NCBI GenBank assembly: GCA_963826935.1
Contig: CAWGYH010000009.1
Coordinates: forward strand, 79,922-143,921
Length of the DNA: 64,000 nt
Reading direction: 5' to 3'
Origin: an uncultured Chlamydiales bacterium
GTDB lineage: Bacteria > Chlamydiota > Chlamydiia > Chlamydiales > FEN-1388
Of this stretch, positions 59,101 through 64,000 are shown piece by piece. Numbering within the stretch: the first letter of the stretch is position 1; each line of letters begins with the position of its first letter. A program made the position numbers and the translations under genes. Below the pieces are notes generated by a model, which was not told where the DNA came from, did no database searches, and was given only the letters and a program-made list of their open reading frames with translations.

Positions 59101-62100
59101 GGCTCTCTCGGCAGAATTTGAGAGCTCTTTATGGCCGTTATGATCAAAGTTGTTGATAGCTATTGCAAGTAGTCTCATAAGTGCGCTTTGAGCTTCTGGC
59201 ATATGAAGGCGGCCTGCGCGCTCAATTCCCTCTGAAAGAAAGTGAATAAGCGCCTCAGAAGACCTTTCGCGCCCTTGGACGAGATGGCCAAGAGCTGCCT
59301 TGCCCGTATCTTGGCGCGGCGTAAGCAAAAACCCTTCGAGGAGTGCCTGAAAGCGCCCATCTTCCAGACGACGAAAGTGGCGATCAAAATAGCGAATGGT
59401 CTGAGGGATGATCATGTCATCGGAGACTAAGATGGAAAGTAGTTCCTGCGCCTCAAGAGCGGGTATCGTCGTCTTACCAAACTGGATATCTTCACGACAC
59501 ATAAGCTGCTGGTTTTGCGTGCTAAAGCGGTCTCTTTCTTCTCGAATCCTTCTATCCAAAAGCTCTGCTACTATGGGCATTTCCTCTCTAGCCCAGAGAT
59601 ATACTGACTGAACCATTAGCCCATGAGAGCTATCTGTAAAGCCTAAGGGCATGGCAGAGCGGATAAAGGTATCGCAGGTGATATCTCTAGTTGAAAATCC
59701 GGGTTCAGTATCGACATTGTTATGTGGAGATCCTCGGTCGAGTGTTTTGTCCAGCTCGAGGGGTTGTCGAGGCTCCTTTGGCATGGACCCCGCCAGAGGA
59801 CTCATATGGGCAAACCCAAGGGTTCTATAGAGGAGGCGCTGGCAATCTTCCAACATTACATTCATGCGGCAGATAGTAGCAAGGGGCTCTTCGGTACTGT
59901 TTATCCTGTAGCCTCTCCATTTGATAGCAGTAAATTCAGCGCATGGAGAGTTTTGATAAAAATCATTTTTCTTAAACTCTTCTGAAAACTTGTTTACAAG
60001 CTCTACCCAGGCGGCTGCCACGGGATCTTGCAGTACTTCGCTTGCGTCATAGTATTTGCGAGCGTTTACACTAAAGCCCGCTGCCCGTTCTTCAGCCACC
60101 GCCTCTACAGGTATGCCACTTTCCCCATTTGCAAGAGCTTTATACTCTTCCATCAGGTGCATCATTTCATCCTTTAGCGCCGGCGATGGAAAGCGCAAAA
60201 GCCCAATCGCTCCTTCAAAGATGCCAAGAGCCCTGCGTGCTTGATCTGTAATGAGTACCTCTGGGTAGCCGCTAAAAGGATTACCCAGTTCAGTAGAGAG
60301 GCGCTTGATTTCTTTTAAATAGCTTACCATAAGATGTCCTACCACGCTGCAGGCGTGTAAAGAGATGCGCGCGGTTGGAACAAAGTTGCTGGCAGTAGAT
60401 AGATTTCCTGCAAGGATAGTGCGAATAGTCTGCATTCCTTGCTGTGTGAGGTCAGCTTTTGAGCTGTTTTCTAAATACCTCCAGCCTAGTTGTGCAGCAT
60501 CTTCTCTATGTTCGTTCCAAAGGAGAGATTTATAGAAAACTTGAAAGTCTTCCCCTGAAGGGACTGTCTTAAAGTGCGCTTTTGCCTCTTCCCAAAGTGC
60601 TTCATACCCCTTCCATAAGGGAGGGCAGGCCTCTTGCTGCATAGCAGCAGGAGGCTCTTTTACAGTAAGCCCGCAGTGCTCTGGGGCAATAAATTGTGAT
60701 GCTGTCAAGAGGGCAGCACGCTTCTGGCTACGGTCTAGAAGCTCCTGATTGCGTATTTCAGCAATTGTTTCTTTTGTCCGAGAGCGGAGAGCCTCAAATG
60801 CAGCTTTTTCCTCGGCGACATCGGCGCCATTATCGACAAGCTTTTTTAGCGTCCTTGCTGTCTTCTCAAGTGCCCACTCAAGATGCGAGGCGCGAGCAGG
60901 ATACATCGTGCTTAATTCTAAAAGGCGCTCTATTGCCTGCATGCGCATGGCAAATTTTAGCCGCCAGCCCGTTGTTACAGAAACTACCTCCTGAAAAGGG
61001 GTAATCCAGGCAATCATCGAGCAGATATTTCCTCGCTGCTCGGCCATAACCTCCTGATCTGCTGCCAAAGTTTTTATTATGCCGGGCCACTCGGGAACAA
61101 CGACATCGTAAAAGTCCTCGTAGCCATAGGAAGTTGGAACCATCTTGCCGGAGTCATCTGGCACTTCAACACACTTAAGCTCGATAAGCATCTCTAGAAA
61201 ACGCGAGTTTTCAAGACTAGCAGATGATACAGATCCAAGCTCTAAAAAGGGAGCACACCGCGACCGCATGTTTGCAACAGTAACTCCATCATGGCATTGG
61301 ACTCCCTGGCCGCGGTTGATAAGTCTTCCTGAAATAGAAGTTCTTCCAAAAAAATCTGTCTCTCTTTTGAGCTGTATGACAATGCTATGGCCGCCATTTC
61401 TTGTGTCATAGCCCCCTTCAAACATGATTTCGCCATCTTTTTCTAGACACTCCATGATTATGTTTTTAGCCATAGTGATCATCATAGGACTATATGTCGG
61501 GCTTCTTGTCGATTCGATACGCAAGGCGGCCTTGTAGCTTCGCAGAAGTTTCTCCAATGCCGGAATCTCTTCTTGAGGGATGCGACCGCTCTGTAACTGG
61601 CTTTCTATAACGTTGATGGTAAAGCCTAAGTGGGTGATTGAGTCGCGGCTTTCATGTTCCATGAGCGCCGCACCCAAAAACATCCTATTGAATACCCCGA
61701 CACCTGCAAAGGATTCAGGGGCAATTTTTTCCTGATAGCGCGTTGCATCGGAAGAGACAAGGTTTGTCAATTCTTGGACCCTTGCACGCTGCTCTTCGGT
61801 GAGCGTCGAAGTCTCTGTGATCTCTTGCAAAAGGGTATGTACCCTGCCAAGCTGGGAAGCAAGCTCTTCGCACATCGTCTGGCTTTTGCCCTTAGAAACG
61901 ACGGTAAACTGCATGTTGCCAATATCAAGCTCTTTTGTTTTAAGCTCGCCACGCAGCCGGCGAATACTGCGATCAATCGTATTCAGGGCACCTGCTACAT
62001 CAACTGCCTGGCTTGATAACTTCCTATACGCCTCGCCTACCTTCTTGAAACTCGTATCGATAGCCTGCAGTCTCTCCACAGTGCGCTGGCCTAATTTGCC

Positions 62101-62370: not shown

Positions 62371-64000
62371 ATGATCCCTACTAGTAATCTTACAATTCAA
62401 TCTCTTCAGAGTGATGAAATAAAACTTGCTCTTGCCGGCAATCAACATAAAGGGTCGCTGCGTAAACAAAAGCATGGCATCGACTCTCGCGAATATCGCC
62501 AGCTGCAAACGAAGATATGGACATCTGGCCATTACACAGATCTTATCCCCCTCTGGGAAGAGGATCTTCGGTACCTCGATGCAAGCATACAGCAGGTTTT
62601 AAATAACGACCAAGATCTTATAGAGCTCGTGTCCGCTATTCATCATTGCCAAAACGCCTCAGTACGCGACCATTTTATTAGCTGTCTGGAAAAGGAGAGA
62701 TCCCTCTTTTGCAGGATCATTCAGAAGCTCGGTGAGCAACATCCACATCCTTCTCTACAGAATGCCCTGAATATGGTAAGTCGATCAGAAATTCTCTCTA
62801 AAGATATTATAGCAACGATGTATGCCCTTGGAAGCCGCCTGCCGCGCAGCATCAGCGGATTAAAACTCGGTGTGCTTACTATAGAAGAGCGGCTTCTTGC
62901 CCTTAAGGAAAACCCTGTTGAACTACGCCATAAGGTACTTCATGCGCTGCAGATTCGCCCAGATGGCCATAAGATAATTGGAGAAAAAGAGCTTGGGCTT
63001 ATTCTTGGCGATGCCTACATTTCACAGTCGGGCCTTGAGGGGTATAACTTTGCAGAGGCCTTTGAGCTTGTAGGCTGCTTTCACGAAGCGCTCACGCCTG
63101 AAATTTGCCGCGAGCTTGAGGCTATGAAACGCTATGCGAAACTTCTCTCTCTCGCTCCAGAAAATCAAGTCTCAGTCTTTGAAGACCTTGCAAAAGAGCT
63201 ACAGCAGGGTGGCCGTATAGCCTTACCTTGCGGATGGATCACCCCAACAGGCGGCCATGCCATGGTGGCAGAATGCCGTTTAGAAAAAAATGGCACCGCA
63301 ACTTTACGCCTCTACAACCAAGGCGCGGGGATCAGCTATCACAACATGCAGACAGCAGATTTTCGCGAAAGGCGAGGCGCCTGGCTCGAAAAGCGAGACA
63401 TTCCACAGCATCTTGTGCTCTCGCCTGCCTTTTGGATGATTCTTTTAGGCTTGATGTGCCCCCAGTCATTTACTGGCACTGAACCCTATAGTGATGATGA
63501 CCTCTACTCCTGGTTTATCCACTGCATTCCTGGAACCCTCTACGATGGGGAAAAGCTTATTTTACCCCAAAGAAGCGGAACCTGTGCCATTGCAGCCATT
63601 TTGGCCTACCTCAATGGCAATCTCACAGAGGCCGCCTACGACAACTTTATCCTAAAATTCAAATGTGGCACCACTGTACGCTACGAAGAGGACCTGTTTT
63701 TACGAAGGGGCATCATAGGCCAGACAGAAAAGTGCTTTCTCCAGGAGATTTGCCATAAACTTGGCAACTCTGTAAAGACGCAGGCAAAAGTAGGCAGAAT
63801 TTCTGAAGAGTTAAAGGAGTTATTACTTCTCTACTGCAACAAAGAAGTGGCCCTCTCTGAAGAGAGTAGCCAAGCGCCCACAGTATGCCAGCTAAGGAGC
63901 CGCTTTTCTCTTGAACCGAGTGGATACAAAATCTATGCCGCTGACAGCTGGACTACTGGCCATAATAGATATGGCATCGATAGAGTCCCCCGTGCATCAT
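62371..64000 (+). CDS. Large protein sharing the N-terminal Cys-protease-like domain (3'-truncated by window edge)
   Basis: Hand translation is open from ATG 62371 to the window end; GWITPTGGHAMV...LYNQGAGISYH...PQRSGTC; absent from the ORF track because it has no stop. Confidence 0.85.
   Translation, partial: MIPTSNLTIQSLQSDEIKLALAGNQHKGSLRKQKHGIDSREYRQLQTKIWTSGHYTDLIPLWEEDLRYLDASIQQVLNNDQDLIELVSAIHHCQNASVRDHFISCLEKERSLFCRIIQKLGEQHPHPSLQNALNMVSRSEILSKDIIATMYALGSRLPRSISGLKLGVLTIEERLLALKENPVELRHKVLHALQIRPDGHKIIGEKELGLILGDAYISQSGLEGYNFAEAFELVGCFHEALTPEICRELEAMKRYAKLLSLAPENQVSVFEDLAKELQQGGRIALPCGWITPTGGHAMVAECRLEKNGTATLRLYNQGAGISYHNMQTADFRERRGAWLEKRDIPQHLVLSPAFWMILLGLMCPQSFTGTEPYSDDDLYSWFIHCIPGTLYDGEKLILPQRSGTCAIAAILAYLNGNLTEAAYDNFILKFKCGTTVRYEEDLFLRRGIIGQTEKCFLQEICHKLGNSVKTQAKVGRISEELKELLLLYCNKEVALSEESSQAPTVCQLRSRFSLEPSGYKIYAADSWTTGHNRYGIDRVPRAS

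Follow-up and report, generated by a model that had tools for sequence, protein, structure and literature searches.

The 64,000-nucleotide stretch of Chlamydiales DNA analysed here, referred to as the window (positions 79,922 to 143,921 of contig CAWGYH010000009.1), carries at its right-hand end two very large genes arranged head to head. One of them, the giant gene, is read from the minus strand and is complete. The other, ORF2 (ORF, open reading frame), starts 108 bp away on the plus strand and runs off the end of the window. A preliminary description of this DNA, made from its letters, had pointed out an unannotated ORF extending from 62371 to the window end at this distance from the start of the giant gene, and these coordinates are correct; ORF2 is free of stop codons from its ATG to base 63999, the end of its 543rd codon, which is the last full codon in the window. 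That the second gene is missing from the list of ORFs, as the same description remarked, is an edge effect, since the program that compiled the list skips ORFs that run off the source sequence. An exhaustive search with a profile of the domain discussed below recovered a protein (P0002/P0152) that, over its first 543 residues, shows 100% identity with ORF2. The full ORF2 product is 2734 amino acids (aa) long and its gene would end at window-equivalent position 70575. The contig extension that had been proposed as a check is provided by a public contig, L002, which matches window positions 53200-64000 with 0 mismatches in 10,801 nucleotides, holds the whole second gene and presents the two genes head to head as in the window. 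The copy of the second protein in the NCBI/ENA assembly, on a contig of 211,678 bp, differs from P0002 by 1 residue, and an exact copy of the protein encoded by the giant gene is also present on public contigs. The locus consists of two divergently transcribed, full-length paralogues of the DUF3638 family, with products of 3020 and 2734 aa.

The statement that the two genes are full-length paralogues of a single architecture is made because P0002 contains a match to DUF3638 (aa 1758-1949, 38 bits) and because its C-terminal ~540 aa align with those of the giant-gene product at 22% identity (E 5e-13). The preliminary description had held that the genes share only a protease-like domain and that everything else is highly diverged. 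This judgement was based on the 543 aa that are visible in the window and it does not survive, because ORF2 is the start of a 2734-aa protein with the whole architecture of the giant. From the N- to the C-terminus, that architecture comprises in the giant a helical region, a domain that carries conserved His, Asn, Gln and Cys residues (the Cys domain), a middle region of ~1400 aa that gave no family match, an SF2/SecA-like ATPase (SF2, superfamily 2) and a tail. Table 1 lists the positions of these elements.

Table 1. Features of the divergent gene pair, in window coordinates; residue numbers refer to the encoded proteins.
Feature	Position	Strand	Remarks
Giant gene	53200..62262	-	3020 aa (P0004), ATG start; ORF list and translation
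Second giant gene (ORF2), 5' part	62371..64000	+	543 codons; ATG at 62371
Spacer between divergent start codons	62263..62370	.	108 bp
Giant, Cys-hydrolase-like domain (aa 256-478)	60829..61497	-	BLASTP to ORF2, domain hidden Markov model, family-wide conservation
ORF2, Cys-hydrolase-like domain (aa 261-482)	63151..63816	+	AlphaFold2 model, Foldseek
Giant, C-terminal ATPase module (aa 1900-2720)	54103..56565	-	AlphaFold2, Foldseek, invariant motifs
Giant, Pfam DUF3638 (aa 1977-2177)	55732-56334	-
Giant H292	61387-61389	-
Giant N316	61315-61317	-
Giant Q409	61036-61038	-
Giant C414	61021-61023	-
ORF2 H296	63256-63258	+
ORF2 N316	63316-63318	+
ORF2 Q400	63568-63570	+
ORF2 C405	63583-63585	+
Giant ATPase motifs			Q motif Q2001; Walker A G2025-K2026-S2027; Walker B D2152-E2153; motif VI-like Q2600/R2604/R2606

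The similarity between the two Cys domains was the central observation of the preliminary description, and it is borne out. His296, Asn316, Gln400 and Cys405 of ORF2 lie at nearly the same positions as H292, N316, Q409 and C414 of the giant and are aligned with them; the codons of these catalytic-type residues were checked by eye against the window DNA. All four of the flanking motif pairs that had been noticed, GGYDTRNGGHSIV/GWITPTGGHAMV, INRGQGVQCH/YNQGAGISYH, YEDFY..PG/DDDLY..PG and QRGNIC/QRSGTC, are present. A further conserved His, which had escaped attention, is H324 in both the giant and ORF2. A BLASTP comparison aligns aa 273-418 of the giant with aa 277-409 of ORF2 at 27% identity and an E value of 4e-10, so that the domains do have the statistical homology whose absence had been named as a refutation, and a phmmer search with the domain of either paralogue alone finds the other. 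A hidden Markov model (HMM) of the domain matches aa 267-477 of the giant with E 6.8e-51.

The relationship between the two genes is old, as had been supposed. In the list of matches to the giant's domain P0002 occupies rank 72 of 85, and in the list for the P0002 domain the giant is at rank 136 of 140. Dozens of relatives in other genomes are closer to each paralogue than its neighbour is. These rankings near the bottom of each other's lists imply that the split is ancient and they rule out a recent local duplication; judged from their sequences, the paralogues stem from two ancient subfamilies. They probably have different substrates.

The preliminary description proposed that the pair defines a new protease family. 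This is not so, because the domain belongs to an existing family of ~3000-aa DUF3638 proteins that is represented by 976 clusters. In the exhaustive search 976 representatives of 50%-identity clusters matched the domain profile at E<1e-3, and 278 of these representatives did so at E<1e-10. It was this exhaustive HMM search that revealed the family, and not the word-indexed homologue searches, which with ORF2, the N-terminus of the giant and a 38-sequence profile as queries returned only P0001 and P0151; a scan of genome contigs gave no match. Most members are 2900-3300 aa long with the domain at aa ~200-550, and the C-terminal module of ~820 aa was found in 110 of the 150 top representatives, most of the others being much shorter sequences. 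The Pfam model PF12340 (DUF3638) scores 62.8 bits in the giant (E 3.8e-17) with a gathering score of 31 bits, and both window proteins are above this score. An alignment with 35 other members extends over the full length of both, and both have the length of about 3000 aa, the N-terminal domain with His, Asn, Gln and Cys, and the C-terminal ATPase of ~820 aa. DUF3645 accompanies DUF3638 according to the Pfam description. The DUF3645 model (PF12359) had no match in the giant at E<=1 or in P0002 at E<=0.01, which has low weight since the model is short and motif-like.

Conservation was counted in the 150 representatives, which are less than 50% identical to each other. The His is present in 148, the Asn in 147, the Gln in 142 and the Cys in 149, and the second His is conserved in 142. 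The likeness to a cysteine hydrolase with retained putative catalytic residues, first noticed in the two window genes, is therefore matched by strict retention across the family. A Gly-Gly-Trp ahead of the His is conserved as well, and so is an Asp-x-Tyr motif. Around the Cys the commonest form is C-[SAT]-W-[KR], and most members have Trp or Phe at Cys+2 and Lys or Arg at Cys+3. Both window paralogues are without these two residues (CAIA in one and CSMI in the other; ORF2 positions 407-408), though they belong to different subfamilies.

The nearest named relatives of ORF2, at 41-44% identity, come from metagenome-assembled genomes (MAGs) labelled Chlamydiota and Waddliaceae, and a fragment in the P0005 cluster comes from a MAG labelled 'Verrucomicrobia bacterium'. 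Four other members lie in bacterial surroundings, with HtpG, YajC, TGT, FBP aldolase, Map, QueG and a transpeptidase nearby. The fold of the N-terminal domain also occurs in DUF3638 proteins of Hokovirus, Harvfovirus, Fadolivirus and Hyperionvirus (Foldseek, E 7.5e-7 to 4e-5), and the members from Klosneuvirinae giant viruses bear the automatic UniProt names 'DUF3638 domain-containing protein' or 'ubiquitinyl hydrolase 1'. From these relatives, from the bacterial surroundings of related genes and from the eukaryote-like kinase, leucine-rich-repeat, patatin and RHS genes elsewhere in the window, the genome is most likely one of the Chlamydiota. The single paper found to remark on DUF3638 describes it as widespread among eukaryotic proteins, with an undefined mechanism (PMC12615304). 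The window pair adds two new bacterial members to a family that is catalogued and experimentally uncharacterised, and the search thus led to no well-characterised family that would explain both genes.

A structural model was obtained for aa 261-482 of ORF2 with AlphaFold2 (AF2) from a 38-sequence alignment, with a pLDDT (predicted local distance difference test) of 92.8 and a pTM (predicted template modelling score) of 0.86. In this model His296 is at the start of a beta-strand. The next strand runs antiparallel to it and is followed by Asn316, Gln400 is in a long loop, and the helix after this loop begins with Cys405. Geometry of this kind is found in AnkH and XopD, whose triads have the order His, Asp/Glu/Asn, Cys (PMC6712400). 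When the model was compared with the Protein Data Bank (PDB) by Foldseek, the only probable matches were six chains of the Legionella effector LegA15/AnkD (7xql, 7kj6, 7ew8), with probabilities of 0.80-0.98; the next match had a probability of 0.02. The link of the Cys domain to LegA15 is one of structure only, and statistically a modest one. A triad H268-N290-C361 has been proposed for LegA15, with a conserved Q356 five residues ahead of the Cys (PMC9757750). Comparisons with the papain-like proteins that are circularly permuted, NlpC-P60 and PPPDE, and with caspase-like proteins (clan CD) had been based on residue order only and were dropped once the model and the LegA15 matches were available; LegA7 was also set aside, being a different protease of the YopT/HopN1 type with the order Cys-His-Asn. 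One other member of the family, P0013 (3075 aa), has ankyrin repeats at aa 100-183, directly before its Cys domain at aa 255-425. AnkD and AnkH have the same order, which may point to a shared ancestry of these small Legionella effectors with the N-terminal part of the giants.

The C-terminal module was modelled in the same way for aa 1900-2720 of the giant (pLDDT 89.9). Foldseek placed SecA first among PDB entries, with E 4e-8 and a template modelling (TM) score of 0.43-0.46 to 5eul, followed by RIG-I/MDA5/LGP2, DinG/XPD, UvrB and Snf2-type motors; the root mean square deviations of these alignments are high, at 12-20 Å. The module had no match at the sequence level to any PDB chain. The Q motif, GK[ST], DE and Q..R.R are invariant in 37 of 37 aligned members, both paralogues among them. 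As modelled, the module is an ATPase of the SF2/SecA-like type with two RecA lobes, large helical insertions and a complete set of motifs. The motor may act on either a polypeptide or a nucleic acid.

As a whole, these results are best explained if the locus encodes two DUF3638 paralogues in which a thiol-hydrolase-like domain is combined with an ATPase, and which are secreted and directed at the host; we give this explanation a probability of about 0.7. Each paralogue possesses, ~260 residues from its N-terminus, a cysteine-hydrolase-like domain with the order His, Asn, Gln (as the oxyanion hole) and Cys, and near its C-terminus a two-RecA SF2/SecA-like ATPase of ~820 aa. This architecture is established by the analysis, as are the homology of the pair, the retention of the residues and the likeness of the folds; enzymatic activity and action on a host are proposed. 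Because the His, Asn, Gln and Cys are near-invariant, a working thiol active site is suggested, and the best reading of the Cys domain is that of an active enzyme, either a cysteine peptidase, an isopeptidase or an acyl-transferase, with a substrate other than Gly-Gly. Both proteins would then be active thiol enzymes, with an action that may be coupled to, or positioned by, the ATP-driven motor on the same polypeptide. After secretion they would act on targets in a protist host.

Several observations weigh against this explanation. We infer secretion and host targeting only from the lifestyle of the organism and from neighbouring genes. None of the Pfam, NCBIfam and PDB sequence models matches the Cys domain; PDB sequence searches with ORF2, the giant, the domain profile, a full-length profile and P0151 returned nothing, and a Pfam scan of 38 Cys-domain sequences at E<=0.1 gave no match, Peptidase_C48 included. 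The structural match to LegA15 is modest, with E 0.014-0.16 and TM 0.36-0.45 (best E 1.4e-2, TM 0.42), and no canonical clan CE structure (Ulp1, SENP, adenain or XopD; families C48, C5, C55, C57 and C79) is found among the top 50 Foldseek matches in the PDB. The literature on DUF3638, DUF3645 and DUF6606 yielded no functional study, and no biochemistry of any member was found. LegA15 itself has been reported to be an atypical GTPase for which the His is dispensable (PMC9757750).

The order His-Asn-Gln-Cys is typical of clan CE proteases of ubiquitin and ubiquitin-like proteins (PMC7391069), and this raises the question of whether the paralogues are classical deconjugating enzymes with specificity for Gly-Gly. 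Most bacterial clan CE effectors are enzymes of this kind, the likely host of the genes is an intracellular bacterium, and the homologues of Harvfovirus and Fadolivirus do carry the label 'ubiquitinyl hydrolase 1'. In enzymes of this class an aromatic gatekeeper directly after the catalytic His gates the Gly-Gly tail, and in the Legionella protease set of one study the one without a gatekeeper is the Atg8 protease RavZ (Hermanns et al. 2020, PMC7391069). Of the 150 representatives, 109 have Ala directly after the His, 16 have Ser and 0 have an aromatic residue; the giant has Ser and ORF2 has Ala. The absence of the gatekeeper makes the viral label doubtful, and there is, further, no match to Peptidase_C48 or to any other Pfam protease model. 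The label was assigned automatically and we found no paper that supports it. Given the missing gatekeeper, it is probably mistaken and at best lacks proof. On balance we regard Gly-Gly-specific deconjugation as unlikely. A second question is whether the Cys serves a non-proteolytic chemistry, as in an atypical GTPase like LegA15 or an acetyltransferase like YopJ or LegCE. Among solved structures LegA15 is the only neighbour, and its reported GTP hydrolysis involves C361 and Q356 (PMC9757750); clan CE includes acetyltransferases with the same active site (PMC7391069). However, LegA15 was hardly affected by the H268A substitution and depended on K367, R291 and R408 (PMC9757750), whereas in the present family the His is 99% conserved. 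If positions are equated with those of LegA15 by spacing, the residue at Asn+1 is variable (T/R/L/S/Q; the giant has R there and ORF2 has Q) and that at Cys+6 is hydrophobic (M/L) with no Lys or Arg. The Lys or Arg that is common at Cys+3 is lacking in both window proteins. A chemistry of this kind appears improbable as a whole, though acyl transfer as in YopJ-type clan CE enzymes is conceivable; a thiol hydrolase or acyl-transferase remains the preferred interpretation of the Cys domain.

The assumed role of the paralogues may be questioned in a similar manner. They could be components of intrabacterial or inter-microbial conflict, of defence or of mobile elements, rather than effectors directed at the host. 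A gene for an RHS-repeat toxin is present nearby in the window (40201-45978) and another is beside a relative (on contig L009), an IS481 transposase lies in the window, and a TacAT toxin-antitoxin pair adjoins the ORF2-type gene of P0003. Against this, neither the giant nor P0002 matches any defence model in PADLOC, and a family that is common to giant viruses of protists, and whose DUF3638 domain is widely spread in eukaryotic proteins (PMC12615304), fits proteins that are directed at eukaryotes or derived from them better. We give this possibility a low probability. Another suggestion, raised in part in the preliminary description, is that the genes form a functional unit, as effector and metaeffector or as an otherwise obligate, co-regulated pair. 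The head-to-head arrangement with 108 bp between the start codons speaks for this suggestion, as does a Waddliaceae MAG in which another DUF3638 giant gene adjoins a gene of the ORF2 type. The Waddliaceae neighbour is, however, in tandem and not divergent, and it does not match the Cys-domain HMM. On the two related contigs that include upstream sequence, the giant-type gene of P0012 and the ORF2-type gene of P0003 have no family neighbour. Both promoters and both 5' leaders have to fit into the 108-bp spacer. It contains no shared regulatory repeat and no promoter signal above chance; a single sigma-70-like match was found (minus strand, 62332..62304) where 1.1 are expected by chance. The spacer has no terminator and no direct repeat, and Rfam gave no match anywhere in the window. 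Two scans of metagenome contigs revealed no further case, so that only a small number of contigs could be used to test for conserved pairing. Among these, clustering of family genes recurs and head-to-head pairing is not conserved. A functional pair of this kind is very improbable, and both co-regulation and a metaeffector relationship are speculation.

Two further contigs bear on the structure of ORF2-type genes. On the Waddliaceae MAG contig CAWGIG010000001.1 (L008; 94-8544 and 9007-18184) the ORF2-type gene follows in tandem after a gene for a 2816-aa DUF3638 protein. The latter has its ATPase at aa ~1270-1480 and no Cys-domain HMM match, and it represents a different architecture within the family. 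The ORF2-type gene on this contig is broken into at least 5 ORFs in different frames and may be either a pseudogene or the product of assembly errors. On a contig from a JGI metagenome (L001; 29-961 and 954-2471) the reading frame of an ORF2-type gene ends behind the Cys domain and an overlapping ORF goes on with homology to P0002 aa 612-1058, which indicates a frameshift, either true or due to a sequencing error.

The remainder of the window contains a number of other genes. An RHS-repeat/DUF6531 protein of 1925 aa is encoded at 40201-45978 (+), at a distance of about 7 kb to the giant gene, and is followed by an overlapping ORF of 248 aa at 45975-46721 (+). Beside the gene of a distant family member, P0130, an RHS/YD-shell gene is located directly downstream (L009 18721-23556). 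The presence of RHS genes near family members may be a coincidence or a recurrent neighbourhood. Two genes for eukaryote-like Ser/Thr protein kinases are present at 20126-21460 (-) and 22788-23933 (-), and a Pkinase gene is directly downstream of the ORF2-type gene of P0003 (L004 11072-12262). A leucine-rich-repeat protein (24634-25521, -) and a patatin-like phospholipase (50407-51663, -) are typical of the effector-rich genomes of intracellular bacteria. Genes of the mevalonate pathway, for HMG-CoA (3-hydroxy-3-methylglutaryl coenzyme A) reductase at 9896-12105 (+) and HMG-CoA synthase at 12514-13707 (+), adjoin the IS481-family transposase. Large ORFs of 923, 616, 761, 452 and 413 aa, which lie at 29404-32175 (+), 32392-34242 (-), 48114-50399 (+) and 26251-29026 (+), had no Pfam match, and an NCBIfam scan of four of them (all but the 761-aa ORF) gave no match either.

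The pair itself is ordinary, and it is the family that merits attention, with its ~1000 clusters at 50% identity and its near-invariant active site and ATPase motifs. A structural link of this family to Legionella AnkD/AnkH has apparently not been reported. For the fields of effectors and of ubiquitin-like proteases, it is of interest that the one neighbour with a solved structure, LegA15/AnkD, is contested, with reports of both a protease-like fold and a GTPase. The presence of two highly diverged paralogues in one genome offers a natural comparison for the study of substrate specificity. It is conceivable, if unlikely, that the DUF3638 giants are an unrecognised class of ATP-driven thiol-hydrolase machines of protists, giant viruses and chlamydial symbionts, with a site like that of clan CE but lacking the gatekeeper, which the motor would feed or position. 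In such a scheme AnkD/LegA15 and AnkH might be stand-alone descendants or relatives of the part of the giants near the N-terminus that joins ankyrin repeats to the protease domain, and the two neighbours described here might be specialised machines aimed at different host substrates.

Comparison with known systems places these proteins as follows. In size (~3000 aa) and in having an N-terminal Cys domain and then a C-terminal ATPase, they are like the DUF3638 giants of eukaryotes and Klosneuvirinae, and they are unlike them in being bacterial members of the Chlamydiota type. The order of the residues in the Cys domain is that of clan CE (His, Asp/Glu/Asn, Gln, Cys), a clan that includes Ulp1/SENP, adenain, XopD, ChlaDUB, SseL and YopJ. 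The places in the secondary structure are also the same, with the His where a strand starts, the acid or amide where the following strand ends, and the Cys at the N-terminus of a helix. The domain differs from clan CE in an insertion of ~90 residues between the Asn and the Cys, in the absence of an HMM match and in lacking the aromatic gatekeeper after the His. With LegA15 the window proteins share the residue order His-Asn-Cys and the spacing from Gln to Cys. The homologues of AnkH conserve the motifs rGHa, D/NRg and GNCSW (PMC6712400), which when compared by eye resemble GGH[AS], N[QR]G and QRxGxC in the window proteins, with a family consensus of SGTC[SAT]W. LegA15/AnkD and LegA3/AnkH combine ankyrin repeats with a protease-like domain, and AnkH has in addition a cap/C-terminal helical domain (PMC6712400); unlike them, neither window protein has a match to ankyrin repeats. 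The LegA15/AnkD chains of the solved structures have 429-444 residues, no ATPase module appears in their descriptions, and at the sequence level no similarity to the window proteins is detectable. As for the other end of the molecule, SecA and the SF2 helicases (RIG-I-like, DinG/XPD and Snf2) have two RecA-like lobes with helical insertions, as does the module described here. A protease and a motor are also joined on one polypeptide in NS3 of the Flaviviridae, which carries an N-terminal protease and a C-terminal SF2 nucleoside triphosphatase; that protease is a chymotrypsin-like serine protease and the whole protein has about 620 aa. The likeness to NS3 is one of layout, an analogy that implies no homology.

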